DNA of 64,000 nucleotides. Origin: Pseudomonadota bacterium (GTDB lineage Bacteria; Myxococcota; JACRCW01; JAFGSX01). Location of the stretch: positions 1 through 64,000 of the forward strand of contig JBDRCO010000132.1 of assembly GCA_043821645.1 (NCBI GenBank), read 5' to 3'. Positions 7,434-29,127 of this stretch are shown piece by piece. Position 1 is the stretch's first letter, and each line of letters opens with the position of its first letter. Under the pieces are notes generated by a model. It had not been told where the DNA came from and did not search any database. It saw only the letters and a program-made list of their open reading frames with translations. A program made the translations under genes and the position numbers.

Positions 7434-8930
7434 ATGTCGGATCCGAGACCGGTCTCTCCGTCACCTTTCTCGGAAGCCAGTCAGCCCGCCGACACCGGCA
7501 AGGCCGATCTCCGCGCTTTCTTTGATGGGCTCGCCTCAGCCCACGATACCTGGCGCAGACGGCACCGGCTCTACTACACCGAGCAGACAGCGGTGATTCG
7601 CCGCTTCGTCGATCCAGGACTGCGCGTGCTCGAGGTGGGTTGTGGGACCGGAGACACCCTGGCGGCCATGCAACCGGCGGTCGGACTGGGACTGGATCTG
7701 TCACCCGCGATGATCGACCGCGCGCGCCGAAAGCACCCCGGGCTCCGCTTCGAGGTCATGGACGCGGAGCAGCTGGACCTAGGTGGCGAAACCTTCGACG
7801 TCGTCGTGATGGCCGATCTCGTCGGAGAGTTGCACGACCTGTGGGCTGCGTTTCGCGCGCTGCGCAAGGTGGTGCGCCCACACACGCGGATCATCATCAC
7901 CTACTACAACTTTCTATGGCAGCCTCTGATCGAGGTCGCGCAGCGACTCGGTATCAAGCGACCGCAGATGGTGCAGAACTGGTTCACCCTGGACGACATC
8001 GAGAATCTGTTCTCGCTCAACGGTTTTGAAAGGGTCACCAGCGGCGACAGGTTGCTGCTGCCTGTGCCCGTCCCGGGACTCGAGACCCTGGCCAATCGCG
8101 TGGGTGCCGCGCTGCCGGGTCTGCACGCCCTGAACCTGTTGCAGTACCAGGTGCTGCGACCGGGACCCGCGTTCGACGCCCGGGCGCAACCGCTGAGCTG
8201 CTCGGTGATCGTCCCAGCCAAGAACGAGCGGGGCAACATCCGGCCAGCCATCCGGCGCACACCGCGCATGGGACCGCGCACCGAACTCATCTTCGTCGAG
8301 GGCGGCAGCTCCGACGGCACCCGAGAGGAGATCCTGGCCGCCATCGCCGACGAGAAGAGCCCCTGCACGCTGCGCTTCGTTCCCCAGGGAGGCAAGGGCA
8401 AGGGCGATGCCGTGCGCACCGGCTTCGCCGAGGCCACGGGCGACGTGCTGATGATCCTGGACGCCGACCTGACGGTGATGCCCGAGGACCTGCCTCGGTT
8501 CTACCTGGCCATCGCCGAGGGGCGCGGTGAGTTCATCAATGGCTGCCGACTGGTCTATCCCCAGGAGGACCAGGCCATGCGCACGCTCAACCTCATCGCC
8601 AACAAGTTCTTTGGTAATGCCTTCAGCTACGTCCTCAACCAGCGCCTCAAGGACACCCTGTGCGGAACCAAGGTGCTGACCCGCGACAACTACCAACGCA
8701 TCGCGGACAATCGCCACGTGTTCGGAGAATTCGACCCCTTTGGGGATTTCGACCTGCTGTTCGGTGCAGCCCGGCTAGGCCTCCGTATCGTCGAGATGCC
8801 CGTGCGCTACCGCGCGCGAACTTACGGCAGCACCCAGATCCAGCGCTTCCGCCACGGACTGCTCCTGTTCGAGATGCTGGGTATGGCCGCCCACCGTTTC
8901 AGGTTCAACCGCTCCTTCCGGCCTGAGTGA
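7434..8930 (+). CDS. Class I SAM methyltransferase fused to a GT2 (DPM1-like) glycosyltransferase
   Basis: N-terminal 'VLEVGCGTG...GLDLS'; C-terminal 'SVIVPAKNE', 'GKGDAV', 'ILDADL', 'DTLCGTK'. Confidence 0.88.
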   Translation: MSDPRPVSPSPFSEASQPADTGKADLRAFFDGLASAHDTWRRRHRLYYTEQTAVIRRFVDPGLRVLEVGCGTGDTLAAMQPAVGLGLDLSPAMIDRARRKHPGLRFEVMDAEQLDLGGETFDVVVMADLVGELHDLWAAFRALRKVVRPHTRIIITYYNFLWQPLIEVAQRLGIKRPQMVQNWFTLDDIENLFSLNGFERVTSGDRLLLPVPVPGLETLANRVGAALPGLHALNLLQYQVLRPGPAFDARAQPLSCSVIVPAKNERGNIRPAIRRTPRMGPRTELIFVEGGSSDGTREEILAAIADEKSPCTLRFVPQGGKGKGDAVRTGFAEATGDVLMILDADLTVMPEDLPRFYLAIAEGRGEFINGCRLVYPQEDQAMRTLNLIANKFFGNAFSYVLNQRLKDTLCGTKVLTRDNYQRIADNRHVFGEFDPFGDFDLLFGAARLGLRIVEMPVRYRARTYGSTQIQRFRHGLLLFEMLGMAAHRFRFNRSFRPE

Positions 8931-11304
8931 ACCGTCGGCGCAGCAGCCCGCCACAAACGTTGAGACCGAGCACGAGAATCCCGGCCACCGCGACGGCCAC
9001 CGACAGTCCGAGGTGGGGACTTCGATAGCGCAGTTCCACCGGGCCTTGCGTGGCGTCGTCGACCAGCACGCCAAGGTGATGTCCGCTCGCCCGGATCACC
9101 GGCAACTCCAGCCCCGCCTGCGTGGCCTGCCAGCCCGCCAGGAAGGCCGTGCGCAGCACGAGCACGCCGCCGCCGTGCCCGGTTACATGCAAGGTGGCGC
9201 GATCTGGCACAGCCCAGTCGACGCGCTCAAGGTCCAGACCGGTGCCGTCGGGAAGCTCTCTCCTGGCACCGAGCCGCTGCAACGGGTCGTCCATGATGGC
9301 CAGGGCGTCGGCGGCCGTGGCACTGTGCGCCATCGCCTGCATCACAGTCGCCTCGTCGCTGAGCAGGTGTGGATCGCGCACGATCGCGTGCCGAGGAATC
9401 GGATCTCGGATGTGGAAGACAGGCAGCCCTCCACGCGCCAGACGACGCGCAGCCTCGCTGGGCAAGGAATCAAAACGCTCGCGCTCGACACCCTGGGTCA
9501 GGCCTTCATCGGATGTCACCAGCAGGTTGCAGCCCAGCGACCGTGCCTCTGACGCTGTCAGCCCATGATCCCCCGCCAGCAGCGTCGTGGCGATACGCGA
9601 CACCAGGGGAGAATAGGGTGCAGCGCCCACCATCCCATCGCAGGCCTGCCGCTCGGGAACGACGTAGAGGCGATGCAGTGCCTCGCGGGCCCAGAGCTGG
9701 TCCTGCGCTCCTGGGAGCGAAAGTCGCAGCGAGTAGACACTGGCGTCGGTGCACAGGATGGCAGGCTCGGCTCTCGGCAGGTGCGCGATGGGGGATTGCA
9801 GGTCTGACAGCCCGGGACCCACAGGCAGGGAGTCCACCGCGTGGACCAGCAGATCGAGAGAGATCAGCAAGATGGCTGCCCGTCTTCGCGCGCGGGCCCA
9901 CAACACCCAGGCACCACCCGCAGCGCAGATTGCCCCGGACATGGCCATCCCGCGCAGCAAAGACCCCAGCAGCGGACCGCCCCCCTGGACCTGTGCCAGG
10001 ACTACCTCGAGGGTATCTCCCTGCATCCATGCACCGAACAGGAGAAGGGCCATCCCCGACGCCATGGTGAAAAGCGCCAGGACCAGGCGGCGCCGGACTC
10101 GCCGGTCCTTGTGCGCTCCGTCGAAGATGATCGCGATCACCATCAGGGCTGTCAGCGACGTGGCCAGCAGATATTTCTGCGGGTAGCGGAACAAGCCCAG
10201 CGGAGGAAAGACCGTGATCAGAGCTCCGTAAAAGGGCGTGAAGCGACCCAGCGCGGACAGCAGCAGCACGCCGCTGATCACAGCTGGCAAGCGCGAACGG
10301 CGCAGCGTGCACCCCGCGATCCACGCCGCCACTGCCGCCGCTCCGAGGTAGGGTGAGGGGTTCCAGGTCGAGGTCACTTCGAGAGTGCTGTAGCCGCTGA
10401 GCCAGGACAGGTCCGTGAACAGAGGACCTGAAACAAGTGTTGCGAGCCATTCGGGCGGACCGTACGACCACTGCAAGATCCTGGACAGCTCGAGGCCGCG
10501 CCCTCGGGTCGAGATCCCGGTCTCGCCCATGAAGGCGAACCACGGCACCGCGCCCACCGCGACGCCGGCCATGACGGCGACGAGGACGCGCAGAGTTCTT
10601 CGAAACAGGACCGCGCGCTGGCTCGCGCGCCAGACGCGGTGCACGATCTCGAAGCCAAGCAAGGCAATGCCGACACCCGCGGCGTGGGGCTCGCCACCGA
10701 GCAGACACAAGGCCAGGCTCGCTGCCACGACCAGCCTGGCAAGAGCCTGCGATCGCTGGCCGAGCGCATACCGACCAGCAACCCACAGCAGCGGTAGCCA
10801 GACCGCGGATTGAAGGTAGTAGGACGAGTGCGTGACCAGGTCGACCACGGCGCCGCTCGCCACGTAGGCCACGCCCGCACCACATGCGACCAGGGGTCGA
10901 ACCCGGAAGCTCCGGGCGAGCCAGGTTGCTGCCGCAGCCGCCAGCACAAGGTGCAGGACGATGAACAGGCTCATGTCCCAGTCGACGGGTAAGGACCGCA
11001 GCATTGCCCGAAACGGATACAGCAGCTGCGCTGAGGGACGCGCGAAGAGCGCTCCTCCGTCGCCCATGCGAGGACTCAGCCAGCTGGGTTGATTCGCCGC
11101 GTCCAGGAGACGGAGTTCACACAGGGTGCCCAGATCCGTGTGGCTGGCGTCGTTGCCGAAGTAGAACAGACCGAACACGAGAGGAAGGCTGGAGAGCGCG
11201 AGCACGATGCCGGCCGCCGCTGCCACGGCACGCAGGCTCGCAGCACGCACCCGTCGACGGAGCAGGCCGAACGGCGCCACGCGGCGAGGAGCGGCGACGT
11301 TCAT
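8905..11304 (-). CDS. YfhO-like polytopic membrane protein (GT-C fold), paralogue 4
   Basis: Many TM segments; 'WLSP..G.G...A.P..QLLYP', 'GGEP', 'FRYPQKY', C-terminal 'GW.A...VELRYRSP' followed by a TM. Confidence 0.75.
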   Translation of the reverse strand: MNVAAPRRVAPFGLLRRRVRAASLRAVAAAAGIVLALSSLPLVFGLFYFGNDASHTDLGTLCELRLLDAANQPSWLSPRMGDGGALFARPSAQLLYPFRAMLRSLPVDWDMSLFIVLHLVLAAAAATWLARSFRVRPLVACGAGVAYVASGAVVDLVTHSSYYLQSAVWLPLLWVAGRYALGQRSQALARLVVAASLALCLLGGEPHAAGVGIALLGFEIVHRVWRASQRAVLFRRTLRVLVAVMAGVAVGAVPWFAFMGETGISTRGRGLELSRILQWSYGPPEWLATLVSGPLFTDLSWLSGYSTLEVTSTWNPSPYLGAAAVAAWIAGCTLRRSRLPAVISGVLLLSALGRFTPFYGALITVFPPLGLFRYPQKYLLATSLTALMVIAIIFDGAHKDRRVRRRLVLALFTMASGMALLLFGAWMQGDTLEVVLAQVQGGGPLLGSLLRGMAMSGAICAAGGAWVLWARARRRAAILLISLDLLVHAVDSLPVGPGLSDLQSPIAHLPRAEPAILCTDASVYSLRLSLPGAQDQLWAREALHRLYVVPERQACDGMVGAAPYSPLVSRIATTLLAGDHGLTASEARSLGCNLLVTSDEGLTQGVERERFDSLPSEAARRLARGGLPVFHIRDPIPRHAIVRDPHLLSDEATVMQAMAHSATAADALAIMDDPLQRLGARRELPDGTGLDLERVDWAVPDRATLHVTGHGGGVLVLRTAFLAGWQATQAGLELPVIRASGHHLGVLVDDATQGPVELRYRSPHLGLSVAVAVAGILVLGLNVCGGLLRRRFTQAGRSG

Positions 11305-13805
11305 GAGGAGCCTTCCGCAGTCTGCGACCCACGGGCAGCTGACCCACCGGCTCCGCTGGACGCGTGTTCAGAAGGCGACGCCATAGCGATCATCGTTCCT
11401 GTGCGGCGCTGTCGTGCAGGGCCGCCCCGAAGCCAGAGGGCACCCAGGACCAGCAGGCTGAAAAATGCCGCTGCCACGAAGAAGGCGAAACCCGGGCTTC
11501 GATAGCGCAACTCCACCGGCCCGGCGCTCGCGTCGTCGACGAGGACCCCGAGCACGCTGCCCGAGACCCGGATCACGGGCACGCTGCGTTCCCCTTGATG
11601 CGCGGTCCAGCCGATCAGGAAGGATGTGCGCAGACCCACCACCGCCCCGCCTTCGCCGACCAGGGTCATCGTGGCTCTGTCCGCACCCGACCACTCCACG
11701 CTGGCGAGGTGAACACTCGCACCGACGGGCAAGACCTGGCCGGGTAGCAGTCGCCCGCCGGGGTCGTCTATCCAGGCCACCGCCTCGCTGGCACGGCTGG
11801 CGCGCGCCATCCCCTGCAGCAGCTCTGCCTCACTGCTCGCCAATCGCGGGCGTGCCACGACGAAGGAGCGCGGTATCGCATCCACAATGCGGTAGGTCGG
11901 AGGCAAGATCGAGGCAAAGGCCCGTGCCCGAGCCGGGAGATTCTCCATGCGCTCGAGCACGACCCCCGACCCATCAACGGGTTGCGCCTTGACGATGTGG
12001 GTGCACGCCAGCGACCGCGCCTCGTTGATGCTCAGCTCACGGCCAAGCACGGTGAGTGCGGACTGGACGCGAGTGATGAGGGGCGAGTACGGGATGGCCG
12101 CGCGGACTCCATCACAGGCCTGTCGCTCAGGCAGCAGCACGCTGCGCTGGAAGACCTCCCGCTGCCACCAGGGATCGTCGCTGAACGCCGCAAAGGTCGC
12201 CCTGGACACGTCCGGGTCGTGACACAGGACGATGTCCTCGGGCGGGAGCGCGACCGCCAGCGGCGCCACGAGGTCTGCGGTCGACGGACCGCGCAGGATC
12301 ATGGAGTGAGCGGCCACCAGCACATCGCACCACAGGACGAGCAGAGCCAGGGTCGGCCTCCAGGTCCGGAGCCGCACCAGGATGAGCAGCGCCAGCAGCG
12401 CCAGCATGGCGTGGATACTGGCCGAGGACCACAGCACCTCGAGCGGCGGTAGTGTGGCGAGGTGGGGTACAGACCGCACGTCCGAGGCGACGGCGGCGAG
12501 ACCCTCGTGGCTTGTGGCCACGATCGCCCACATCAAGCCGTAGCTCAGCAGCAGCAAGGTCAACGCCAGGGTGAGGCGACGCCGGTGAACCGAACTCAGG
12601 CGCGCCCGTCCGACCGAGATCGCGACCACGACCGACGCCGCCAGCGCCGTCAGCACGAGGTACTTCTGCGGATACCGGAACAAGCCGAGGGGCGGCACCA
12701 GCTCGATGAGAAAGGGCATGATGGGCGTGAAGGAGCCCAGCGCCGCGACCAGGCTGACGATCACCAGCAGCGTCGCGAGGTGGCCGCGTCTATTGACGAC
12801 GACACTCACCACCACGGCGAGCACGGCGCCTCCCAGGTAGGGAGCAGCGTTCCAGCTTTCCGCGAAGCCTGCACCCTCGCTGTACAGAGCACGTACCAGT
12901 CCACTGCTGAAGGCCTCCCCGGGCCACAGGGCACCGAGCCAGTCGGGAGGTGCAAGAGACCAGAACAGCGCCTCGTCCGCGGACAGGACACCCCGACGTG
13001 ATCCGAGCGAGGACTCCACCATGAAGGCGCCCCACTGCAGGAGACCCAGGCCGGCGGCGCTCGCGAGAGCCAGCAGCACAGGAATCCCGCGCCGCAGCAG
13101 CTGACGCCAGGAGGCTCGTCGGCTGCGGAGCGGAGACCACAGCACCTCGAGCAGGAGCACACCTGCGCCCACGGCGAAGGACTGGGGCTCACCACCCAGC
13201 AGGCACAGTGCGCCGGCCATCCCAGTCAGGACGAACCATCGCGACTGCCCGCTGGCCAGACCCCGGCGTCCAGAGGCCCAGAGCAGGGGCAGCCACGCGG
13301 CTCCCGTCACATAGTAAGAATGCGGAATCAATCCCACGACGACACCGCACCATGCGTACACCAGGCCACTGAGCGCCGCCGCCCGGGGATGGACGCCGAA
13401 GGTTCGAGCGAGCCAGGTGGCGGTCGCCGCCGCAATGGCGAGGTGCACCGTGGGCGACAGCGAGTGTGCCCACGGCAGCGGCAGGGGCACGAGCAGCCAG
13501 CGCAGAGGATAGAACAGCTGCGCACTGGGTCGTGCCAGCAGAACACCCCCGTTGCCCATGTGGGGACTGAGCCACAGCGATTGTCCCGTCGCCAGCAGGT
13601 TCTTGAGCTCACACAGCGTCCCCAGATCCGTGTGACTGAGATCGCCTCCAAGCAGGAAGCCACCCGTCAGCAGCGGCGCACCCAGCAGCACGGCTGTGAT
13701 GAGGCCAGCGCAAGCGCAGGCGATCGCCGTCGCCCACCGCGCGCGGGACCGCAGCGTCGACCAGGGAACAACAGGCGGCGCTGGCTGGGCGGTCCGACGG
13801 GTCAT
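11301..13805 (-). CDS. YfhO-like polytopic membrane protein (GT-C fold), paralogue 3
   Basis: Same motif set. Start at ATG 13805 overlaps the upstream stop; the longer ORF N-terminus is spurious. Confidence 0.75.
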   Translation of the reverse strand: MTRRTAQPAPPVVPWSTLRSRARWATAIACACAGLITAVLLGAPLLTGGFLLGGDLSHTDLGTLCELKNLLATGQSLWLSPHMGNGGVLLARPSAQLFYPLRWLLVPLPLPWAHSLSPTVHLAIAAATATWLARTFGVHPRAAALSGLVYAWCGVVVGLIPHSYYVTGAAWLPLLWASGRRGLASGQSRWFVLTGMAGALCLLGGEPQSFAVGAGVLLLEVLWSPLRSRRASWRQLLRRGIPVLLALASAAGLGLLQWGAFMVESSLGSRRGVLSADEALFWSLAPPDWLGALWPGEAFSSGLVRALYSEGAGFAESWNAAPYLGGAVLAVVVSVVVNRRGHLATLLVIVSLVAALGSFTPIMPFLIELVPPLGLFRYPQKYLVLTALAASVVVAISVGRARLSSVHRRRLTLALTLLLLSYGLMWAIVATSHEGLAAVASDVRSVPHLATLPPLEVLWSSASIHAMLALLALLILVRLRTWRPTLALLVLWCDVLVAAHSMILRGPSTADLVAPLAVALPPEDIVLCHDPDVSRATFAAFSDDPWWQREVFQRSVLLPERQACDGVRAAIPYSPLITRVQSALTVLGRELSINEARSLACTHIVKAQPVDGSGVVLERMENLPARARAFASILPPTYRIVDAIPRSFVVARPRLASSEAELLQGMARASRASEAVAWIDDPGGRLLPGQVLPVGASVHLASVEWSGADRATMTLVGEGGAVVGLRTSFLIGWTAHQGERSVPVIRVSGSVLGVLVDDASAGPVELRYRSPGFAFFVAAAFFSLLVLGALWLRGGPARQRRTGTMIAMASPSEHASSGAGGSAARGSQTAEGSS

Positions 13806-16216
13806 GGCGACCCCCGGGCAGCTGCCATACGCGCATCCTCCCGTCGCGGGCGCCGGCCCTGGGCCCCTGGGACGAAAACCAGCAGGAGCAGGCCGAACAC
13901 GCCGGCGAAGCTCAACCCCGCCCCTGTCCACAGATGAGGCGGGCGATACTGAAGATGAACATCTCCGGCGTCCACGTCGTCGACGATGACTGCCAGCTGG
14001 TTGCCTGCAGCCCGTACGACCGGTACCGGGTGCGAGGCTTGTTCTGCTGACCAGCCCACCAGGAAGCACCTGTGCAATGCCACCACCACGGGGCCAGTAC
14101 CGCGCAGGCGAAGCGTCGCCTGGGTTGCCGAGATCCACTGGACGTCCATTGCCTCGATGGGGCCAGAGGCAGGAAGAGACCTGGTGCTGGCTGGCAGCCG
14201 TGCGAGGGGATCATCGATCAGGGCCAGCGCGGCCGCTGCGGTGTGCGTCTGCGGAATCCTGGTGATCGCGTCTGCCTCGGCCACGAGAGCAGGCCGCACC
14301 ACCTGCGCGACCTCGGCCAGGGGGTCGACCACGGAATAGAGCTGCGGACCAGCTTCGGGCACAGAAGCCCGGAGCGCGCTCCAGGGTTCAGGGGCCAGGT
14401 CGACGTCATCGAGCGGACTCGCACTCAACACGTGCGTGCAGCCCAGGGCTCGGGCCGACGCACCGGCGAGCACAACGGGCGCGAAGTAGAGCGCATGCGC
14501 CACCCGGCTGGTGAGCGGAGAATAGGGAACGGCTGCCGCGATCCGATCGCAGGCCTGCAATTCAGGTAGAGCATACAGCCGCTGGAATGCGGCCTGTCCC
14601 CAGCCGGGTTCGCTTTCCGGTATCACCAGTTCAGCACCATAGAGATCGCTGTTGTGACAGATCACCATGGCGGGGTGGCCGGACAGTGGTGAGCGGAGGT
14701 CCGACAGCGTCGGTCCCGCACGAAGCGACAGCAACGCCGCACCGCCCACATCCAGCATCCAGCACAGCGCCACGGTCATCACGGCCCGGGGCGAGCGCCA
14801 CCGCCACAGCACGAGCACGCAGAGCAGGGGCGCGGCAGCGCGCACCAGGTCGAAACACAGCTCCCCCGCGAAGCCAGGGCGCACCTGATACGAGCGGACA
14901 CTGGCCCAGACCGCCAGCTCGTCGAGCTCCCGAGCGTGGAGACCCACCACCGCACTCGTGGCGAGATAAACGACCGCGATCACCGTGGCACCCAGCGCCA
15001 GCCGCCGCATCCAGGCCCTGTCCCTTCGCGCGCGTTGCAGGGCCAGGACGGCGCACACCATGCCAGCCAGCGACGCGATGACCAGATACTTGGCGGGGAA
15101 GCGAAACCAGTCGAGGCCAGGGATGAATCGGATCGCCGCTGGCCACAGAGGTGTGGCGGACCCGAGACTGGCGATGCTCGCTGCGACCGCGATGATCGCA
15201 GCCGGTCGTGCCCGGCGCAGGGTGCAGCCAAGCACGGCGAGCAACAGGAACAGCCCTCCGACATACGGTGATGGATTCCACAGCGTGTCGACGTGATCGT
15301 CGCGGACCAGCGCCCAGACGCCATCGCGAAAGAGGGATCCCGGCACCAGTGCGGCTGGCCACAGCGAGGCGTCGAAGGACCATTGCAGGATCTTGTCCAG
15401 GGCCAGCGGCTGGCCGCGCCGGGACAGTCCGAGCTCTGCCGACATCGGGAGCAGGACGATCGCGCCGATGGCGATAGCCGAGAGGATGGCCATCACCAGA
15501 CGGACGCCCCTGCGCAGGATTGCCACGGGTGCGTGGCGTTGACGCCAGAGACGGAGCGCACCCTCGAGCGCGAGCACGGCACACGCGAGCGCGAAGGCCT
15601 GGGGCTCGCCACCCAGCAGCAGGGCAGCGAGACCGAGGCTGACGAGAGCCGTTGCCCCGCCTTTTTTGGGCCCTGCCCGCAGGACCGTTCTGCCTGCGAC
15701 CCAGACCAGGGGCAGCCAGGCAGCGGCGATGACGTATTGCCCGTGGCGGACGAGGTCCAGGGCAGGTCCTGCCAGGGCAAAGGCAATGCCTGCGCTGGTG
15801 GCCAGCACGGGTCGAGCGCCGTGGCTGCGCGCCAGCCAGGTTGCCGTGGCCGCGCCGGCCACCAGATGAGCGGCCTGGTGCAGAGCATTGCCCCAGTCGA
15901 CGGGCAGCGCGAGAAAGAGCCAGCGCGGGGGATAGAACAGCTGTGCATTGGGTCGCAGGGCCAGCAGGCCGCCGTTGCCTATCCAGGAGCTCAGCCACAG
16001 GCCTGTGCCGTCGTGCAGAGCGTGCTTCACGGCACAGAAAGTCCCCAGGTCGTTGAGGGTGAGATCCAGCCCGAACAGGGGCCCGCGCAGAGCCATCGGC
16101 ACCAGGAGCACGAGACCGGTGATCGCGGCAGCCACGGCGCACGCCAGCCGCGTGGAGTGGCGGGACAGCATCTGTCTGGCAGAGTGCGCCTGCCCTGCGC
16201 CCCTGTAGTCGCTCAT
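13802..16216 (-). CDS. YfhO-like polytopic membrane protein (GT-C fold), paralogue 2
   Basis: 'DLTLNDLGTFC', 'GGEPQ', 'WNPSPY', 'FRFPAKY', 'QACD...PYSPL'. Confidence 0.75.
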   Translation of the reverse strand: MSDYRGAGQAHSARQMLSRHSTRLACAVAAAITGLVLLVPMALRGPLFGLDLTLNDLGTFCAVKHALHDGTGLWLSSWIGNGGLLALRPNAQLFYPPRWLFLALPVDWGNALHQAAHLVAGAATATWLARSHGARPVLATSAGIAFALAGPALDLVRHGQYVIAAAWLPLVWVAGRTVLRAGPKKGGATALVSLGLAALLLGGEPQAFALACAVLALEGALRLWRQRHAPVAILRRGVRLVMAILSAIAIGAIVLLPMSAELGLSRRGQPLALDKILQWSFDASLWPAALVPGSLFRDGVWALVRDDHVDTLWNPSPYVGGLFLLLAVLGCTLRRARPAAIIAVAASIASLGSATPLWPAAIRFIPGLDWFRFPAKYLVIASLAGMVCAVLALQRARRDRAWMRRLALGATVIAVVYLATSAVVGLHARELDELAVWASVRSYQVRPGFAGELCFDLVRAAAPLLCVLVLWRWRSPRAVMTVALCWMLDVGGAALLSLRAGPTLSDLRSPLSGHPAMVICHNSDLYGAELVIPESEPGWGQAAFQRLYALPELQACDRIAAAVPYSPLTSRVAHALYFAPVVLAGASARALGCTHVLSASPLDDVDLAPEPWSALRASVPEAGPQLYSVVDPLAEVAQVVRPALVAEADAITRIPQTHTAAAALALIDDPLARLPASTRSLPASGPIEAMDVQWISATQATLRLRGTGPVVVALHRCFLVGWSAEQASHPVPVVRAAGNQLAVIVDDVDAGDVHLQYRPPHLWTGAGLSFAGVFGLLLLVFVPGAQGRRPRREDARMAAARGSP

Positions 16217-18582: not shown

Positions 18583-18586
18583 CTCG

Positions 18587-19156
18587 TCACCAGTGAAATC
18601 CTAGACCGACCGTCGCCAGCAGGCTGCTGGTGCGGGTGGTGCCCTGGACGCCAAAGTCCCAGCGCAGATACCACTTCCCATGTCCTGCACGCAGACCCAC
18701 GCCTGCAGCCAGACCGCCGAGGGGACGCGCAGCGAGGCGATGGTGCCCCGAGGCCTCGATGAGAACCATGTGCAAACCGGCGACTCCTGCCACGCGCAGG
18801 TGAGGCTGCAGCTCGAATCCTCGCGCTCGCAGCATGGGACCGAATCGTAACCCTAGCTCGAATGTCAGATCCTGACTGCGGGTCGAGAGCGCAGCCGAGC
18901 CCTGCCGGCCTGGCCACCCGGTGAGCACGCCAAGTTCGCAGGCCACGACCCAGGCCCCGGGCTCGAGGGCGATCCCGGTGCGGAGCCCGGAGTGCAGGTC
19001 GAACTCACCGCGTGCGCGCGACGCGGACTCCGTCGTCGACACCGCCAGCGGCAGCTCGACCTCCAGACGCCAGGCTGGCCAGTTCTCTGCCACCGGCAAG
19101 GGTTCGCGGGGCAAGGACGCCACGAGGACGAGCAGGCCAAGGACCGTGCCGTTCAT
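18587..19156 (-). CDS. Putative small outer-membrane beta-barrel protein
   Basis: Signal-like N-terminus, alternating amphipathic strands, aromatic C-terminus 'VGLGFHW'; ATGA overlap at 19153-19156. Confidence 0.55.
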   Translation of the reverse strand: MNGTVLGLLVLVASLPREPLPVAENWPAWRLEVELPLAVSTTESASRARGEFDLHSGLRTGIALEPGAWVVACELGVLTGWPGRQGSAALSTRSQDLTFELGLRFGPMLRARGFELQPHLRVAGVAGLHMVLIEASGHHRLAARPLGGLAAGVGLRAGHGKWYLRWDFGVQGTTRTSSLLATVGLGFHW

Positions 19157-22178: not shown

Positions 22179-22939
22179 TTGAGATCTCGCTGTCCAAAGG
22201 CAAGAGCGGCCAGCAGCAAGAAGGCTCCGCTCCAGAGCAGGGCATAAAGACCGGTCCCCAGCATCGCCGAGCCGGGTGGCATGGGGAGCTGCGCATCGAG
22301 GTCGAAGCGCGTGAGGTCGGGCAAGGCGTGCATCATGCCGCTGCTCAGACCCCTGTAAATGGAATCCGGAAAGCGGTCTGCCAGTTCTGCCATGCTGCGG
22401 CCCAGGCGGCCGACGACGAACAGCAGCACACTGTAGATGGCCGCGCTGTTCGTGTTGGCAAGCGATGCAAACATCAAGGCAAAAGCCCCGGCCAGCATGA
22501 ACTCGAAGAACAAGAACAGGATCGAATAGACCCGGGCCAGGGTTGGAGCGGTGAACGGCCCCCCGGCCGCGACCAGCAGATACAGCACTGTCGAGCCAAG
22601 GAGATTGAGCAGCAGGACCGCGACCAGCCCGAGGTACTTGCCTGCTATCACCTCCAGGCGGGTGACAGGTCGAGCCAGCACCATGTGCAGCGTCTTGCGC
22701 TCGATGTCCGTGGCGAGCAACTGGATCCCGACGAAGATGGCCACCATCGATCCACTGATGCTCAGGGCAGCATGAGCGATATCGTGAAAGACTCGCCCCG
22801 CATCGCCCATGCTCCCGGCATCGACGACAGCTCCCCCCAGCAGCAGCACCGAATAGAAGGCGAGCAGGTTCAGGAACAGACGTGAGCGCACCGCCTCCTG
22901 GAACGAAGCCCGGGCGACCACGAGAACACGCGTGCTCAT
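22175..22939 (-). CDS. pilI: ABC transporter permease (PilI-like)
   Basis: 'DIERKTLHMVLARPVTR..I.GKYLG', C-terminal 'FGQRDL'; lies downstream of the pilins and pilH. Confidence 0.8.
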   Translation of the reverse strand: MSTRVLVVARASFQEAVRSRLFLNLLAFYSVLLLGGAVVDAGSMGDAGRVFHDIAHAALSISGSMVAIFVGIQLLATDIERKTLHMVLARPVTRLEVIAGKYLGLVAVLLLNLLGSTVLYLLVAAGGPFTAPTLARVYSILFLFFEFMLAGAFALMFASLANTNSAAIYSVLLFVVGRLGRSMAELADRFPDSIYRGLSSGMMHALPDLTRFDLDAQLPMPPGSAMLGTGLYALLWSGAFLLLAALAFGQRDLK

Positions 22940-23871
22940 GATCTGGCCTCCGCGCTGCGATCGCGCTCGAGTTCGCGGACCACCACGTCCTCGAGACTCG
23001 AGCGCATGGGTATCACGGAGACGATCTGCCCTCGCTCGCGTGCCCAGTCGAGCACCTGCGGCAACTGGGATTCCTGCGGCACCGTGATGCGAAGGACATC
23101 GCCGACGCGGTCACTATGCAGCCCGTCGGGTCCGCTGCTCGTCATGTGGGCCTGAGACAGCCGGACAAGGACCTCGCTGCCGGTCAGCCCACCCCGCATC
23201 AGATCGTCCACCTTGCCCACGCGCACGATGTGGCCGTGCGCCATGAGCGCGACCCGATCACAGAGCACCTCGACGTCCGGCATGACGTGCGTGGAGAAAA
23301 AAACCGTCGTGCCATTGCGCTTGAGATCCAGGATCACATTGCGCACCAGCTGGCGCCCGACGGGATCCAGCCCGCTCATGGGCTCGTCGAGGATCACCAG
23401 CCGCGGTGGGCCCAGGAGCGCCTGCGCAAGTCCCACGCGCTGCAGCATGCCCTTGGAAAAGGTCCGAAGCAGCCCGTGCTGGCGATCTGCCAGACCGACG
23501 CGCTGGAGGATGATCGGGATATCGCGTGCCAGCTCGTTCCGCCCCATCCCGGCAAGCCGCCCGGATAACTCGAGCAGCTCACCCGCCCGGATGTATCCAT
23601 AAAAATTTGGCAGCTCGGGCAGGTAGCCAAGACGCTGACGACTTGCCAGCGAACCGATGGGATGCCCGAGCACGGACCCCTGACCCCGGGTCGGACGGAC
23701 CAGCCCCAGAAGCATGTGGATGGTGGTCGACTTGCCGGCACCGTTGGGACCGACGAAGCCAAAGACCTCACCCTCGTGGACCTCGAAGCTGCAGTCGCGC
23801 ACTGCCTCGAACCGCTGGCCGCGGAGACCGACTCGAAAGATCTTCGTCAACTGCTGCGCCACGATCACCAT
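22936..23871 (-). CDS. pilH: ABC transporter ATP-binding protein (PilH-like)
   Basis: Walker A GPNGAGKST, signature FSKGM, Walker B VILDEP; ATG at 23871. Confidence 0.88.
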   Translation of the reverse strand: MVIVAQQLTKIFRVGLRGQRFEAVRDCSFEVHEGEVFGFVGPNGAGKSTTIHMLLGLVRPTRGQGSVLGHPIGSLASRQRLGYLPELPNFYGYIRAGELLELSGRLAGMGRNELARDIPIILQRVGLADRQHGLLRTFSKGMLQRVGLAQALLGPPRLVILDEPMSGLDPVGRQLVRNVILDLKRNGTTVFFSTHVMPDVEVLCDRVALMAHGHIVRVGKVDDLMRGGLTGSEVLVRLSQAHMTSSGPDGLHSDRVGDVLRITVPQESQLPQVLDWARERGQIVSVIPMRSSLEDVVVRELERDRSAEARS

Positions 23872-24743
23872 TGCTTCAACTCCTCCACAGCCGATGCGGG
23901 CAGGTGAACACGCAGCCTCTTCCTGCGCGTGGAGCTGGTCACCTTCCCGTCGCCATCGAGGCCCCACCTCCCACCATAGGGGTCCTCGGGTAGCCCTGGG
24001 AGCACACCCTGCTCCACCAGCACGCTCAGGGACGCCGGGGCGTGGCCGAGGCGCTGCGCGTAGCTGGCAGACGCTGCCTCGAGCAGCTGGTAGTTGCACT
24101 CCCACACGATGTGGCGACGACGCTCGTCGAGTCGATCGCGCACCATGGGATCGTGCGCCTGCGCCTGCAGCTGGGCAAGCCACTGCAGCGACTGCACGCA
24201 GTTGCCAGTGCTGGCTGCGATGCTGGTGGCGAGCGCCTGCAGGTAGGGCGGGCAATCTGGCAGGCTGGCGGCAGCCATGAAGTAGCGCGCGGCACGAGGC
24301 AGGTCCTCGCGATACACCATGGCGTTGAAACCAAGGTAGAAGGGGAATCTCCAGTCCCGCGTGAAGCGCTGTGCACCTCGCTCAAGCAGCACGTCTGCAG
24401 CCTCGACGCCCTCCAGCGAGGTGGTGAGCGCCAGGCCACCGAAAAGGTAGGCCGAACGGAAATGAGGATCCAGGGTCACCACGCGATCCAGAGTGCTCGC
24501 GAGACGCGCGTAGCGCACCTCTGCCCCTTCCTTCCCACCGTAATACGAGGTGGCGTCGAGCCAGGCCAGATCCGCAGACAGCCAGCGGTGGCCCAGAGTG
24601 AGTGCCAGCAGAAACTCGGCAGGAGGCGCGATCACCTCGTTCACCTGGGCAGCGTGAGGCGGCAACTGTAGGCGCACCACATCCGCCAGACTGATCAATC
24701 CGAGACTGGCGACGAGTAATGGGAGCGACGTGCGCACCGTCAT
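23865..24743 (-). CDS. pilG: PilG/XapA-like TPR-type pilus accessory protein
   Basis: 'ADLAWL...YYG', 'LDPHF..AY..GG', 'LLERG....DW.FP..LGF', 'P.DPYGG'; position upstream of pilH/pilI. Confidence 0.68.
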   Translation of the reverse strand: MTVRTSLPLLVASLGLISLADVVRLQLPPHAAQVNEVIAPPAEFLLALTLGHRWLSADLAWLDATSYYGGKEGAEVRYARLASTLDRVVTLDPHFRSAYLFGGLALTTSLEGVEAADVLLERGAQRFTRDWRFPFYLGFNAMVYREDLPRAARYFMAAASLPDCPPYLQALATSIAASTGNCVQSLQWLAQLQAQAHDPMVRDRLDERRRHIVWECNYQLLEAASASYAQRLGHAPASLSVLVEQGVLPGLPEDPYGGRWGLDGDGKVTSSTRRKRLRVHLPASAVEELKQW

Positions 24744-24809: not shown

Positions 24810-27800
24810 TCACCGGGCCTCGTCGTCGAGAACCTCACTCAGTAGCAGACGCCTGGCGGAGTCGGGATCGGGAGCGCGCTGGACAAACTCCGCGGCCACC
24901 CGGCTGGCCTGGGTGGTGTCTCCCGCACGGTGCAGGGACCGGACGAGGTGCACTGTGGCCTCGAGATCGTCCCGCGCCATGTCGAGCACGGCGCGATTCA
25001 AGCGTTGCACGGTCCCCGCATCCCCGGCCTTTTCCGCCTGCATCGCCCAGTGGTGCAGTCGCTGCTGGCGCTGAGCAAGGGCCTGCAACCAGCGCCGGGC
25101 AAGCTGGACGAGCACACTGGGGTCCGCCTGTTTCGCACCCACCAAAAGGGCCGCCTGGAGCGCATCCGGGTCCATGGTCTCCTCGACGCGGACGCGGGCA
25201 AGGAGGGTGGCGAGGATGGGGTGGCCTCGTTCAGCCGCCCAGCGCATGGCTGGCCCCGGAGGGGCTGGCGCAGACCACCGGTCCAGGGCTGGACGATAGA
25301 ACTCCTCGGGATCGCGGCCCAGGCAGGCCACAAGGAGACCGCGAAGCAGCAAGTCCTCTGGGCGTGGCGTGGGGATGCGCTCGACCTGTTCGAGACCAAG
25401 GGCACACCTGCGTCGTTCCAGATTCAGCAGCGCGGCAAAGCGCGCGGCCCGCTGGGCGCCCTCATCGTCTGGTTGGTCGCGGCAGATCCTGTCCAGCCCC
25501 AGCAACGCCTCCTCGATCTGGCCATCCACGATAAGCCTGCGGGCTTGCAGGTAGTGGCTCATGCACGGGCCGACGGCCCCGGAGGCGGCCTCGACGGCAA
25601 GCCGGGTGACCGACGGCCAGACCGCATCACGGCGCAGGCCTTCCTCCGGGATACCCGTGATCCACGCAGGCATTCCGCCCGGCGTCATCAGCCGGCGCTC
25701 GGCCGCGCTGAGAAGAAACGCCCGGAATGCACTCTCATCCCCTGTCAGCCAACCCGGGGCGGGACCAAGACGATCCAGCAGTGCCGGCTGCATGGCCGAG
25801 AGATCGATGTAGCGGTCCGCAGCCACGTGCGCGAGGTGGGTCTCGATCAGGGCATCCCGGTCCCTGTTGCGGGGGGTCACGGCTCCGGCCGGTGGAGCCC
25901 CGCTGAGAACAACCAGCGCCAGCAGGTCCTCGACGGTCCGCGGGCTGGCGCCACACAGGGCTGTCAACTCCGGGCGCTGCAAAACGTGTGCGACCCGGTC
26001 CGCGTCCAGCACGAGAGCGCCACGTGTCCCGGCGAGATAGAACAGGCCACGCTGCTCGGCTGCCAGGAGCACGACCTCGTCGAACACCGCACTCATGCTA
26101 TGCACAACGCCGCGGAGCACCTCCTCTGTCATGCGCTGCGTGTTGATCCACTGGAAATAGACGCCCCCCTCGGTCAGGGACTCCTGGGCCAGCCGGTAGA
26201 ACTCCTCGGTGGCCAGGTTGCCGACGCCACTCAGCCACCAGTGCGTCGGCTGCGACGCGATCACGTCGTAGCGAGCCGGCACGGCAGCGTAGTGGTTCCG
26301 CTGCAGCAGATCCCGACCGTCGTCCTGGAGGATGCGCACTCCCGGAAGCTGCTCCGCCGGCGGTACACCATCGGAGACATGACGCAGGGCCTCGACCACG
26401 CGCGGCTCGATCTCGACGACGTCGACCTGCTCCACTCCAGCGGCAACCAGGGCCTCGGCGGTCACGCCGCCCCCGAGTCCTATCACCAGCGCCCGCGATC
26501 GGTGCCGCGCCAGAGCTGCGGGTATGGAGCCCAGGAGCACGGATTCTCGGCTGTAACGAGGCCTGGAGAGCTGTCGGCTCGCCTGTGGCAGGCCGTCGAT
26601 GTACAGCGTCCATGTCTTTGGCGGTTCTTCGACCAGGGTCACGGTGCCGTGCGCGCCTTCGGCAGCAAACACCGTCTGATCCGTGATCTGCTCGAGAGCA
26701 CCAAGGCTGCGCCACAGCGTGGCCCGAGGCACCACGCGCAACAGCGACAGGCGGGCCAGGTCCACGCCCGGCCAGGCCACACTGGCCAGCCCCAGGAGCC
26801 CCAGCGCGCCCACGACAAGGTGTCTCTTCGTGGCGCTCAAGCCTATGGCCACAGCGGTACTCAGGGCCACCAGCAGCACCAGGTAGAAAGACGCTGTGGT
26901 TCCGAGACGCGGGACCATGGCGGCGCCAACACCGAGCGAACCGATCACCGCTCCGACCGTGTTCGACGCCAGGAGACGCCCGACCAGGTGTCCGCCCCCC
27001 TCGTCGCCACACGCATCCACCACGGCCGGGAACAGGGCCCCGCTCAGACTGGCCACGGGAAGCAGCACGAGGCTGGACAGACCCACCCGCTGCAGCAGGG
27101 CCAGCAGGCCTCCACTGTCGCTGACGGCGAGACTCCACCAGCCCAGGACCGTCATCAGGGTGGTGGTGATCAGAGCCAGAGCCACCTGTGCCAGGATCAG
27201 GTACCCGATATGAGTCCAGCTCGGGCGGCCATGTCGTGACAGCCTGTGATAAAGCGCACTGCCGACGACCAGACCCAGCAGGTAGGTTGCCAGGACCGTG
27301 CTGATGGTCTCGAGGGTACCCATGAGCACGAGGTGCAGAGTTCTGAAGTACAGAACCTCGTAGCCCATACCCGTGAAACCCAGCACTGCAGCAAGCAGCA
27401 TTGCCGCGCGGGGTACCGTCGCTGTCACGGGAGATGCCCGGGCCAGCGACGGAGCACTGAGATTCCCTGCTCGACCTCTTTGCGCGAGCAGGATCAGCAC
27501 GGCTGCTGCAAGATCCAGGGCACATCCCACTGCGAGGGCTCCCAGGTGTCCCGCCAGCGCGATCAGCACCATTCCTGTGATCAGTGTTCCGAGCACCGCG
27601 CCGGCGGTGTTGACCGCATACAGAGCTGCAGTACGGCGACCGGTGCGATCCTGATCGAAGCCAGCCACCAGCAGCGGCAGGCTCATGCCCATGCCCAGCG
27701 CCGGAGGTGCGAGCAGGAGCATCGCGGCAGCGCCCTCGAACCAACTCTCGGCAGAGGGCCCAAGGCTCGTCGACACGGCGTACAGGACATGGCTGTGCTC

Positions 27801-28076
27801 GAGCAAGGGAAAGCTCAGCAAGGCCCAGCACCCGATGCTCACCTCCAGGACCGCATACAATCTCAACGGGTGCCGGATGCGCCTCGACAGCCGTGCCGCC
27901 AGACTGGAGCCCAATGCCATCCCCGTGAAGAACACGGCAGAGACCACCACCAGCGACTGCAGGGTCGAGCCAAAAGCCAGCCCGAAGCTACGGATCCACA
28001 CCGTCTCGAAAACGAGAGATGCTGCTCCAGAACAGGCTGCAGCAAGGAAGATGAGCTGTGATGAAGCGATTCTCAC
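24810..28076 (-). CDS. Polytopic membrane protein fused to a spermidine-synthase-like domain, with helical/TPR-like C-terminus
   Basis: 'SGAASLVFETVW.R', 'LYAVNTAGAVLG', repeated TM block, then 'ALVIGLGGG', 'VVEIEP', 'DDGR', 'YDVIASQP'. Confidence 0.8.
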   Translation of the reverse strand: MRIASSQLIFLAAACSGAASLVFETVWIRSFGLAFGSTLQSLVVVSAVFFTGMALGSSLAARLSRRIRHPLRLYAVLEVSIGCWALLSFPLLEHSHVLYAVSTSLGPSAESWFEGAAAMLLLAPPALGMGMSLPLLVAGFDQDRTGRRTAALYAVNTAGAVLGTLITGMVLIALAGHLGALAVGCALDLAAAVLILLAQRGRAGNLSAPSLARASPVTATVPRAAMLLAAVLGFTGMGYEVLYFRTLHLVLMGTLETISTVLATYLLGLVVGSALYHRLSRHGRPSWTHIGYLILAQVALALITTTLMTVLGWWSLAVSDSGGLLALLQRVGLSSLVLLPVASLSGALFPAVVDACGDEGGGHLVGRLLASNTVGAVIGSLGVGAAMVPRLGTTASFYLVLLVALSTAVAIGLSATKRHLVVGALGLLGLASVAWPGVDLARLSLLRVVPRATLWRSLGALEQITDQTVFAAEGAHGTVTLVEEPPKTWTLYIDGLPQASRQLSRPRYSRESVLLGSIPAALARHRSRALVIGLGGGVTAEALVAAGVEQVDVVEIEPRVVEALRHVSDGVPPAEQLPGVRILQDDGRDLLQRNHYAAVPARYDVIASQPTHWWLSGVGNLATEEFYRLAQESLTEGGVYFQWINTQRMTEEVLRGVVHSMSAVFDEVVLLAAEQRGLFYLAGTRGALVLDADRVAHVLQRPELTALCGASPRTVEDLLALVVLSGAPPAGAVTPRNRDRDALIETHLAHVAADRYIDLSAMQPALLDRLGPAPGWLTGDESAFRAFLLSAAERRLMTPGGMPAWITGIPEEGLRRDAVWPSVTRLAVEAASGAVGPCMSHYLQARRLIVDGQIEEALLGLDRICRDQPDDEGAQRAARFAALLNLERRRCALGLEQVERIPTPRPEDLLLRGLLVACLGRDPEEFYRPALDRWSAPAPPGPAMRWAAERGHPILATLLARVRVEETMDPDALQAALLVGAKQADPSVLVQLARRWLQALAQRQQRLHHWAMQAEKAGDAGTVQRLNRAVLDMARDDLEATVHLVRSLHRAGDTTQASRVAAEFVQRAPDPDSARRLLLSEVLDDEAR

Positions 28077-28150: not shown

Positions 28151-28570
28151 CTACGGGCAATAAGTTGTGGCATTCATGACCATGCCATTATTCCCGTTGT
28201 TTGCATTATAGTACCCGATGTTCCAGGTGCCATGGATGGGGTTGGTTGGCGTCGCCGTCGACAGGAAGGCTGTCGAGGTGTTGCTCACGGTGAACGTGTA
28301 GTACTTGCCGTAACCAACGTTACCGGAAGCGCCGTTAAGATCAAGACCGAACAGCTGGATTGAGTTCGAGAAGGTCTCTGTCTCACCGGCATAGGCGACG
28401 TTGGCCGTGTACACGCCCTTGAGCATGTTCTTGGCCTCAGAGGTCTTTGATTTGCACTGGAACTTCAGGAAGTTAGGGATGGCGATTGCCGCCAGCACGC
28501 CGATGATGGCCACCACGATCATGAGCTCGATGAGAGTGAAGCCTTTGCGGAAGCGCGTCCAGATTGCCAT
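28151..28570 (-). CDS. pilA: Type IVa major pilin
   Basis: Leader RKG|FTLIELMIVVAIIGVLAAIAIPNF; RBS AAGGAGG; sigma-54 promoter upstream. Confidence 0.93.
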   Translation of the reverse strand: MAIWTRFRKGFTLIELMIVVAIIGVLAAIAIPNFLKFQCKSKTSEAKNMLKGVYTANVAYAGETETFSNSIQLFGLDLNGASGNVGYGKYYTFTVSNTSTAFLSTATPTNPIHGTWNIGYYNANNGNNGMVMNATTYCP

Positions 28571-28617
28571 AGGGTTTTCCTCCTTGCCAAGGTTGGGTTT
28601 CGCTCAAGCTAGCATTA

Positions 28618-28633
28618 AGCAAGACCTGTTCCA
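28618..28633 (-). promoter_or_regulatory. Sigma-54 (-24/-12) promoter of pilA
   Basis: Minus strand TGGAACAGGTCTTGCT, which is GG-N10-GC and close to the consensus TGGCAC-N5-TTGCW. Confidence 0.82.
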
Positions 28634-28674
28634 AGAAAAATATCTGTAACTTCAAGACCGAATGCAGTGTGGAT

Positions 28675-28711
28675 GGCGAAAAACGTCAATGCGGGACGAC
28701 GTAAAATGTCA
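28675..28711. promoter_or_regulatory. Tandem candidate enhancer (PilR-type activator) sites
   Basis: GGCGAAAAACGTCA (28675-28688) and GACGTAAAATGTCA (28698-28711), upstream of the sigma-54 promoter. Confidence 0.45.
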
Positions 28712-28719
28712 CCTGGCTG

Positions 28720-29127
28720 TCAATTACAGCCATCCTGGAAGTGAATAAGACCACCCCGCGTGTGGTTTTGCCATACATCCTGCAAACCACCTGGTCCGGG
28801 GATCTGGCTTCTCACATCAGCCGTCCACTGGGTATTATTAATTCCAAAACAGCTGACGTTGACGATGTTGTATTGCGTGGTCGTGTACTCGATGCCGCCA
28901 ACGAGTCGGAGTTCCGCCGCGTCACATAGGAACATGTTGGTCTCGTTGTAGTAGGCCCACTCGGCCATGTAGATGCCCTTGAGCAGAGCCTTGGCCTCCG
29001 TCTGCTTGGTCTTGCAGATGAAACCCTTGTAGTTCGGAATGGCGATCGAGGCCAGGACGCCGACGATGGCCACCACGATCATGACCTCGATGAGCGTGAA
29101 GCCTGCGGAAGGTTTTTGAACGCGCAT
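28720..29127 (-). CDS. Second type IV pilin (PilA paralogue)
   Basis: SAG|FTLIEVMIVVAIVGVLASIAIPNY; ATG at 29127. Confidence 0.88.
   Translation of the reverse strand: MRVQKPSAGFTLIEVMIVVAIVGVLASIAIPNYKGFICKTKQTEAKALLKGIYMAEWAYYNETNMFLCDAAELRLVGGIEYTTTQYNIVNVSCFGINNTQWTADVRSQIPGPGGLQDVWQNHTRGGLIHFQDGCN

Follow-up and report, generated by a model that had tools for sequence, protein, structure and literature searches.

Organization of the locus

The 64,000-nucleotide stretch of contig JBDRCO010000132.1 analysed here (the window), from a bacterium of the Myxococcota lineage, carries thirteen co-directional genes on the minus strand between positions 29127 and 8905. The run begins with two genes for type IVa prepilins and ends with four tandem genes for membrane proteins of the YfhO superfamily, which are probably of the glycosyltransferase C (GT-C) type. 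Transcription would proceed through pilA1, pilA2, a gene for a large membrane protein with a spermidine-synthase-like domain (spd), three genes in the positions of pilG, pilH and pilI, a Wzy_C-like gene, a zinc metallopeptidase gene, a gene for a small secreted protein and the four paralogues, here designated Y1 to Y4. The original prediction had described this run as chained, from pilG onward, by overlapping stop and start codons, and inspection of the open reading frame (ORF) listing, with the junctions read base by base, bore out both the arrangement and its exact coordinates.

The pilG and pilH genes share 7 bp, the stop codon of the former lying at 23865 and the ATG of the latter at 23871. 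Overlaps of 4 bp (ATGA, GTGA or TTGA) join pilH to pilI (22936/22939), pilI to the Wzy_C-like gene (22175/22178), the latter to the peptidase gene (20436/20439) and the peptidase gene to that of the small putative barrel (19153/19156), as well as Y1 to Y2 (16213/16216), Y2 to Y3 (13802/13805) and Y3 to Y4 (11301/11304); a 4-bp gap (18583-18586) lies between the small putative barrel gene and Y1. The upstream intergenic gaps measure 149 bp (pilA1 to pilA2), 74 bp (pilA2 to spd) and 66 bp (spd to pilG), and these three contain no convincing terminator, their folds being no better than those of shuffled sequences (z 0.26-0.86). The pilG-to-Y4 block is tightly coupled and is part of one operon behind the pilins, with eleven envelope proteins. 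The short starts of Y3 (13805) and pilH (23871) are backed by the lower GC content at third codon positions (GC3) of their upstream extensions (0.54 and 0.49, respectively, against 0.76-0.80 within genes). For the peptidase gene, a start at the TTG at 20439 is less certain, because the corresponding ESM Atlas record begins at Met31; a start at that residue would leave an 87-bp gap at this junction.

Four paralogues from a divergent YfhO-related clade

The four paralogues are all encoded on the minus strand: Y1 (789 aa, 16213..18582), Y2 (804 aa, 13802..16216), Y3 (834 aa, with its ATG at 13805; 11301..13805) and Y4 (799 aa, 8905..11304), which is the last gene of the operon. They share 37-38% pairwise identity. 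Y1 appears to consist of 12 transmembrane helices, a periplasmic domain of ~270 aa and a last transmembrane helix, as judged by a crude hydropathy method, not a topology predictor, which gave 13 peaks and placed a loop of 271 aa ahead of the thirteenth. The description of YfhO of Bacillus subtilis is similar, with 13 transmembrane helices and a large outer domain that precedes the final helix (PMC5836110).

These proteins had been proposed to be four YfhO/GT-C paralogues of ~800 aa; their paralogy and superfamily membership stand, but they miss the threshold of the Pfam family. With PF09586, Y2 gives a score of 13.9 bits (E 0.018) and Y3 of 7.9 bits (E 1.1), whereas Y1 and Y4 give no match and the gathering cut-off is 28.5 bits. 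None of 28 sampled close relatives reaches this cut-off, which is reached by 15 of 17 sampled among the more distant relatives P0135-P0160. A word-based search returned 14 relatives, among them five close ones without a Pfam domain and eight distant ones with PF09586, and the relative P0006 matched with a coverage of 95% (phmmer E 2.2e-21). When a nine-sequence alignment (A2) was compared by hhalign with eight PF09586 proteins, they aligned over 724 columns with a probability of 100 and an E value of 2.5e-58. All 30 ESM Atlas feature matches of Y1 fell in YfhO clusters, and the Atlas model of Y1 matched a YfhO cluster with a template modelling (TM) score of 0.87 over 761 residues.

In a tree of 112 sequences, 95 close relatives are separated with a support of 100 from a 17-row outgroup clade, most sampled members of which reach PF09586. 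Y3 and Y4 are sisters (support 99) joined by Y1 (92), Y2 groups with P0031 (91), and all four lie within a 16-sequence clade (97). Since homology extends over the full length and the scores stay below the cut-off, these proteins constitute a divergent clade of the YfhO superfamily outside the Pfam model. The clade is sizeable, and it defines a YfhO-related group that Pfam does not recognise: when 1.84 billion representatives were searched with the profile, 21028 proteins matched at E <= 0.001, of which 855 did so at E <= 1e-30.

The first outer loop is the best-conserved part of the alignment (58% against 38% overall). It contains D45, located directly after the first transmembrane helix and opposite the Arg-rich inside N-terminus, which is present in 112 of 112 aligned sequences; D50 is Asp or Glu in 73 of the 112, and the four paralogues have both D45 and D50. 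Each of Y1-Y4 keeps 4/4 invariant and 18-19/19 near-invariant positions checked. A search of the PDB with the Y profile revealed no solved relative, the single match being at chance level (E 0.47), and tblastn of Y1 against plasmids gave no match. Taken from their sequences, the assignment of Y1-Y4 to the YfhO superfamily of GT-C-type membrane proteins is supported, and their conserved residues fit active GT-C-type transferases in which D45 may have a catalytic role.

Wzy_C-like protein and neighbouring glycosyltransferase

The gene at 20436..22178 (minus strand) encodes a membrane protein, probably of the Wzy_C superfamily (O-antigen ligases, O-oligosaccharyltransferases and polymerases), with a C-terminal tetratricopeptide repeat (TPR) domain. 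Its earlier assignment as O-antigen-ligase-like is supported through its homologues: the protein itself scores 19.4 bits with PF04932 (E 9.7e-4), under the cut-off of 31.7, whereas P0162 (43% identity), P0163 (38%) and P0164 all carry this domain. The one named relative is an "O-antigen ligase family protein". In the alignment of four sequences, TRS, R263, G.G..FG and TR.AH310 are invariant, as are R209 and H310; R209, R263 and H310 may correspond to the two Arg and the His that WaaL and PglL conserve. The plain sequence found no match in the PDB, and its profile matched TPR proteins only, with an E value of 3.5e-5 for the TPR region.

A gene overlooked by the original prediction lies next to Y4. 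It is located on the plus strand (7434..8930), convergent with Y4, and the 3' ends of the two genes overlap by 26 bp. Its 498-aa product is a soluble fusion of a methyltransferase (Methyltransf_23, E 2.7e-17) and a family 2 glycosyltransferase (GT2; Glycos_transf_2, E 1.2e-22) with no transmembrane helix. Among solved structures it is most similar to ArnC (E 7e-12) and to DPMS (E 7.5e-10), and the NCBIfam models AglJ, dolichyl-P-hexose transferase, ArnC and PgfS all match it below threshold. We consider the protein a candidate polyprenyl-phosphate-sugar synthase that could supply the donor. Among the matches listed, a GT2 of the ArnC/DPMS/AglJ/PgfS type is found within 1.5 kb of a YfhO-like gene at three of three loci (the window and the related loci L001 and L002 described below). 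Directly 5' of the GT2 gene lie three plus-strand genes chained to one another by 4-bp overlaps, two for EutN/CcmL vertex proteins (6162-6446 and 6443-6742) and one for a class II aldolase (6739-7410). Vertex proteins of bacterial microcompartments together with an aldolase are presumably typical of a Myxococcota type of microcompartment.

Pilins and prepilin peptidase

Two type IVa prepilins with G|FTLIE leaders are encoded at the head of the operon. PilA1 (28720..29127, minus strand; N_methyl E 3.6e-9), whose gene has an AGGAG 7 nt 5' of its ATG, has the leader MRVQKPSAG|F; its mature form, 126 aa long, contains 4 Cys residues as well as 4 N-x-S/T motifs. PilA2 (28151..28570, minus strand; N_methyl E 2.2e-9) has the leader MAIWTRFRKG|F and 129 mature residues including Cys29 and Cys128. 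It also contains the Ser/Thr-rich stretch TFTVSNTSTAFLSTAT, in which 9 of 16 residues are Ser or Thr; PilA1 is without such a stretch. Both match the NCBIfam model PilA_Myxo (NF041775) below its cut-off, with 68 bits for PilA1 and 92 bits for PilA2, and the best solved match of PilA2 is PilA of Myxococcus xanthus (8TJ2, E 5e-18, over the first 65 residues). These matches support the prediction that the two pilins are of the Myxococcus type. Within 28001-30000, the pilin genes are AT-richer (GC 0.59 against ~0.67 around), with a first-codon-position GC of 0.41-0.51; apart from them, the rest of the operon has the local base composition.

The gene divergent from pilA1 (29145..30242, plus strand), also overlooked previously, encodes a PilD-like prepilin peptidase (A24_N_bact E 1.4e-34, Peptidase_A24 E 1.1e-12). 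The A24_N domain starts at residue 62 of the longest ORF, so that translation probably begins downstream of 29145. A scan of 60 ORFs of the window detected no type IV pilus genes other than those for the pilins and PilD, and no homologues of pilB, pilT, pilC or pilM-Q; this is therefore a pilin-plus-peptidase locus and not a main cluster for the pilus machine.

Accessory genes of the operon

The spd gene (24810..28076, minus strand) encodes a 1088-aa membrane protein, a fusion resembling the major facilitator superfamily (MFS) and spermidine synthases (NF037959, 70.7 bits against a cut-off of 40). It has ~12 N-terminal transmembrane helices, a spermidine-synthase-like Rossmann domain (Spermine_synth, E 6e-8, 32.8 bits against 22.9) and a C-terminal TPR-like region. 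Aminopropyltransferases have the Asp of a GGGDGG motif and the catalytic Asp residues of a D..DP motif. In an alignment with 6qmm, the domain (25977-26699) is without the GGDGG Asp and the D..DP Asp residues: "viGGGDGG" of 6qmm stands opposite "viglg-gg", and "DVIlvDgsDp" opposite "DVIasqpthw". Thus, the label "spermidine-synthase-like" given to this protein is sound at the level of the fold and fails at that of the catalytic Asp residues, and the domain may be a pseudo-enzyme or act on another substrate.

The next gene (23865..24743, minus strand) encodes an N-terminal signal or anchor followed by ~270 TPR-like residues, with no Pfam or NCBIfam family. Of its 25 homologues, three carry Pfam domains of the TPR type, one bears the name of a TPR protein and none that of PilG; the "pilG" label is therefore positional only. 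The predicted pilA-pilGHI arrangement holds for gene order, which matches that of M. xanthus. The ATPase in the PilH position (22936..23871, minus strand) belongs to the ATP-binding cassette (ABC) transporters (ABC_tran, E 2.9e-25), with sub-threshold matches to drrA (201 bits) and GldA (173 bits); its nearest solved ATPases are those of ABCA lipid transporters and NosF. The PilI position (22175..22939, minus strand) is occupied by an ABC-2 type permease with six transmembrane helices (ABC2_membrane_2, E 1.5e-13, 51 bits against a cut-off of 27.2), which has a weak PDB match to PmtD (E 0.11).

Proteases of the M4/M36 type are characterized by an HExxH motif and a downstream Glu in an NExxSD-type motif. 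The gene at 19153..20439 (minus strand) encodes a putative thermolysin/fungalysin-like (M4/M36-like) zinc metallopeptidase with HELSH followed by NEGSAD and a lipobox-like leader (LLLCAC), and the protein is probably a lipoprotein. No Pfam, NCBIfam or PDB sequence match was found for it; in the ESM Atlas it resembles M4/M36 clusters with structural TM scores of 0.58-0.64 and feature scores of 0.92-0.94. The small secreted protein encoded between the peptidase and Y1 (190 aa, 18587..19156, minus strand) has a signal-peptide-like N-terminus, 7-8 amphipathic alternating stretches and the C-terminus TVGLGFHW, with no family match in Pfam or NCBIfam. A putative 8-stranded outer-membrane beta-barrel is a plausible reading of these features.

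Related loci in other genomes

A scan of genome contigs with the four-paralogue alignment revealed at least three related loci, L001 (37% identity), L002 (29%) and L003 (weak). L001 and L002 score 841 and 599 bits, respectively, against the A4 model and are clear members of the subfamily. In L002 the GT2 is fused to a GtrA-type membrane domain. This locus lies on CAZCUX010000027.1, where a GtrB-like GT2 adjoins; the contig has 62% GC despite its title of "uncultured Enterobacterales", and the taxonomy of the bin looks doubtful. Contigs of 38322 and 108617 bases are recorded for a YfhO-like cluster (P0001) and likewise for a Wzy_C-like cluster (P0163), a hint that one other organism has the YfhO-Wzy_C linkage too.

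Comparison with known glycosylation and pilus systems

Y1-Y4 resemble the CsbB-YfhO pair of B. subtilis and GtlA-GtlB of Listeria, with which they share full-length homology, 13 transmembrane helices with an outer domain, an acidic residue in loop 1 and a GT2 neighbour (PMC5836110). In contrast to these systems, the clade in the window lies outside the Pfam YfhO model, its host is a diderm, there are four tandem copies and no teichoic acid, and the opposite strand encodes the GT2, a soluble protein that is joined to a methyltransferase. The streptococcal proteins PgtC2, PgfM1 and PgfM2 are also of the YfhO type and O-glycosylate Ser/Thr-rich regions, and the Pgf operon lies beside the genes of its adhesin substrates (PMC12041528). 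Like that operon (PgfS, PgfE, PgfM1, PgfM2) and GtrB/PgtC2, the locus combines more than one YfhO-type GT-C and a GT2 with neighbouring genes for surface proteins, and its GT2 gives a sub-threshold match to PgfS. The candidate substrates here are type IV pilins and not sortase-anchored adhesins, however. The operon has four GT-Cs where the streptococcal one has two, lacks an epimerase, and includes the Wzy_C-TPR protein, ABC-2 transporter, peptidase and small putative barrel as additional components.

Two pilin-modifying systems also resemble the operon. TfpW of Pseudomonas aeruginosa, which serves group IV pilins, is a GT-C encoded behind pilA; it uses a periplasmic polyprenyl-phosphate sugar, may both polymerise and transfer, and brings a TPR into the system (10.1101/2020.04.19.049825). 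TfpW is Emb-like, is not known to be a relative of YfhO and is marked by a DDX motif, a proline motif and a TPR at its own C-terminus. It is a single gene directly behind pilA, whereas in the window the TPR domains are on other proteins. With TfpO/PilO and PglL the locus appears to share a Wzy_C-superfamily protein in the same orientation as the pilins. The periplasmic loop region of this protein has an Arg that is invariant among its homologues, together with an Ala-His motif. PglL-type Wzy_C genes mostly adjoin pilin genes, and two motifs, PglL_A as well as PglL_B, separate PglL from WaaL (PMC3643930). Unlike these enzymes, the Wzy_C-like protein of the window is without PglL_A, scores under the Wzy_C cut-off, has a C-terminal TPR and is encoded 6 kb downstream behind four genes.

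The cluster of M. xanthus runs pilA-pilG-pilH-pilI-pilD. In published descriptions, a pilin is followed by a third gene, an ABC ATPase and an ABC-2 permease (PMC6060248, PMC3724824). The window resembles this cluster in the Myxococcus-type N-terminus of its pilins, in the succession of pilin, accessory protein, ABC ATPase and ABC-2 permease, and in the presence of pilD at the locus. It differs in having two pilins, both small (126-129 aa when mature against 208), the MFS/spermidine-synthase-like gene before pilG, seven further genes appended, and no pilB, pilT, pilC or pilM-Q among the 60 ORFs.

The combination of genes had been put forward as one not known to be described. It does have precedents, TfpW, TfpO/PglL and the Pgf operon being close ones; every element has one, and the operon is not a new kind of system. 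In the literature searched, within the limits of that library, we found no description of YfhO-type genes at a pilin locus among the papers listed, and those that pair YfhO with Myxococcota were unrelated by title. No listed paper connects a spermidine synthase with pilins and ligases, and none deals with a fused MFS/spermidine synthase.

A predicted pathway of extracytoplasmic glycosylation

An extracytoplasmic glycosylation line, as originally proposed for this operon, is still its best reading and is strengthened by the neighbouring GT2 gene. Periplasmic transfer of lipid-linked sugars is well supported, and the most likely role of Y1-Y4 is to attach sugars, on the far side of the inner membrane, to the subunits of the pilus or to some other molecule of the cell surface. 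Pilin is the most likely acceptor, as judged from gene context only. We tentatively favour the view, to which we give a little less than an even chance, that the locus is an island for pilin maturation and modification in which the YfhO-type GT-Cs glycosylate the pilins in the periplasm. The pilin is preferred as target because of translational coupling to the pilin/prepilin-peptidase locus, the Ser/Thr-rich stretch of PilA2 and the three precedents.

In such a pathway, the GT2 domain of the methyltransferase-GT2 protein would load a sugar onto polyprenyl phosphate in the cytoplasm, as expected from its family, and the lipid-linked sugar would then be flipped to the periplasmic face. Because no GtrA-type flippase is present, this step could fall to the ABC-2 transporter PilH/PilI together with its TPR partner, or else to the YfhO-like proteins. 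Each of Y1-Y4, by means of the invariant Asp in its first periplasmic loop, would then transfer the sugar to an acceptor at the outer face of the inner membrane, and the Wzy_C-TPR protein may ligate or polymerise an undecaprenyl-diphosphate-linked glycan made elsewhere in the genome. The acceptor would most likely be the membrane-held pilin before assembly; judged by context, the best candidate for the modified site is the Ser/Thr-rich stretch in PilA2. That there are four paralogues would point to as many sites, to as many linkages or to a short glycan being built stepwise in the periplasm. A more elaborate form of this pathway, in which the PilG/H/I-type ABC-2 system is the flippase or exporter that feeds Y1-Y4 and the Wzy_C-TPR protein, giving a stepwise multi-sugar pilin glycan distinct from the products of TfpO/PglL and TfpW, is improbable as a whole, with roughly one chance in eight; if true, it would give a mechanistic lead on why Myxococcus pili need PilGHI.

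Several observations weigh against pilins as the target of the operon. TfpO-type enzymes use the C-terminal Ser of the pilin, and the two pilins end in CP and CN with no C-terminal Ser. The PF09586 cut-off, as noted above, is missed by the paralogues and by all their sampled close relatives. The expectation that homologues would be linked to pil genes elsewhere failed among the matches listed, as none of the three related loci, which hold more distant relatives (29-37% identity), has a pilin, PilG-like or Wzy_C-like gene within 10 kb. In L001 (6960-9750) and L003 (3914-7533), both from metagenome-assembled genomes of Myxococcota, the YfhO-like gene adjoins genes for a FIST-domain protein and a PAS histidine kinase. 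The ten representatives of the nearest clade come from ten differently sized contigs, and so give no sign of a tandem array elsewhere. The link of the GT2 to the operon is not certain, because its gene lies on the opposite strand in a co-directional run with the two EutN genes and the aldolase gene. The Wzy_C-like gene is 6 kb from the pilins and does not adjoin them, and a Pfam scan of its product gave no match to PglL_A at E values up to 0.01. In addition, family scans found no initiating phosphoglycosyltransferase, sugar-nucleotide genes or GtrA flippase in the operon.

As an alternative, the same enzymes would act on an envelope glycan (the O-antigen of lipopolysaccharide, an exopolysaccharide or another lipid-linked polymer), in the manner of GtrC/ArnT-type enzymes and of YfhO on teichoic acid. 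The Wzy_C-like protein would then be a polymer ligase or polymerase, and the pilins mere neighbours, since pili and surface polysaccharide are used together. The founding YfhO members do modify teichoic acids and not proteins (PMC5836110), which also counts against a pilin target. The missing pil linkage at the three related loci, the absence of PglL_A and the relative named as an O-antigen ligase agree with this explanation; the ABC-2 transporter adjoining the Wzy_C-like protein may recall ABC-dependent polysaccharide export, and gaps of 66-149 bp set the pilins and spd apart from the overlapping block. However, all thirteen genes point the same way, and no convincing terminator follows the pilins; the sole other functional theme of the locus is that of PilD and the pilins, and family scans of the operon revealed no initiating transferase, Wzx, Wzz or sugar-nucleotide enzymes. 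An envelope glycan as the target is a less likely alternative, at a little under one chance in three.

We regard as distinctly less probable, at about one chance in six, that the operon encodes a general system for periplasmic protein O-glycosylation with many Ser/Thr-rich envelope targets, pilins included. Streptococcal PgtC2, which is of the YfhO type, acts on several membrane proteins (PMC12041528), PglL of Neisseria is a general system (PMC3643930), and at the other loci among the matches listed, a subfamily member occurs singly beside a GT2, with no gene nearby that is an obvious substrate. Translational coupling to the pilin locus suggests a dedicated system instead; a single general transferase needs no four paralogues in one operon, and the Ser/Thr-rich stretch occurs in PilA2 only and not in PilA1. 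It is very unlikely, fewer than one chance in ten, that the pilG-Y4 genes are an accessory of pilus biogenesis or export like PilGHI of M. xanthus, with the YfhO-like proteins in a non-glycosyl role as scaffolds, lipid flippases or polymer translocases. PilG, PilH and PilI are required in M. xanthus for pilin translocation and pili (PMC3724824), a flippase function of YfhO has been raised as possible (PMC5836110), and the spermidine-synthase-like domain of the operon is a probable pseudo-enzyme. Against such a role, Y1-Y4 retain every invariant residue of the superfamily including the Asp of loop 1, and a matching GT2 accompanies the family at each of the three loci compared for it.

Glycosylation of the pilins therefore remains our favoured reading. 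The sugars carried by pilins influence adhesion and motility as well as resistance to pilus-specific phages. The routes known from the papers cited are Wzy_C-type O-oligosaccharyltransferases (PMC3643930) and the Emb-like GT-C TfpW (10.1101/2020.04.19.049825). If the operon modifies its pilins, YfhO-type GT-Cs would be a third route, in a diderm, and the Gram-positive layout of a substrate gene, a GT2 and YfhO paralogues would exist in Myxococcota. The operon would also offer a testable idea for the long-unexplained PilGHI transporter.

Regulatory signals and flanking genes

A weak sigma-54-like -24/-12 element, TGGAACAGGTCTTGCT, is located at 28618..28633 (minus strand), 48 bp 5' of the pilA2 ATG. 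It has two mismatches to the consensus, and such motifs are not enriched in the window (10 matches against 12.6 expected by chance); since the motif is no commoner than chance, position alone speaks for this element. Just 3' of pilA1 (28640-28725, minus strand), a weak hairpin with a 6-bp stem and an 8-nt loop is followed by UUUUU. The hairpin might act as a leaky terminator that separates pilA1 from pilA2, although its fold energy is no better than that of shuffles. Sigma-70-like and terminator-like matches within the operon were rejected as consensus matches inside coding sequence. No tandem or phase-variation-type repeats were found except two-copy chance arrays, and an Rfam scan of the window returned no family.

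Convergent with pilD, a gene at 30283-31860 (minus strand) encodes a 525-aa probable lipoprotein (leader ending in GFSAC) with choice-of-anchor D, ASH and PKD-like immunoglobulin domains, possibly a surface protein. The window also contains two parts of cyclic di-GMP signalling, a GAF-GGDEF diguanylate cyclase (32600-35128, plus strand) and a PilZ-PAS-histidine kinase-receiver hybrid (49674-51794, minus strand).

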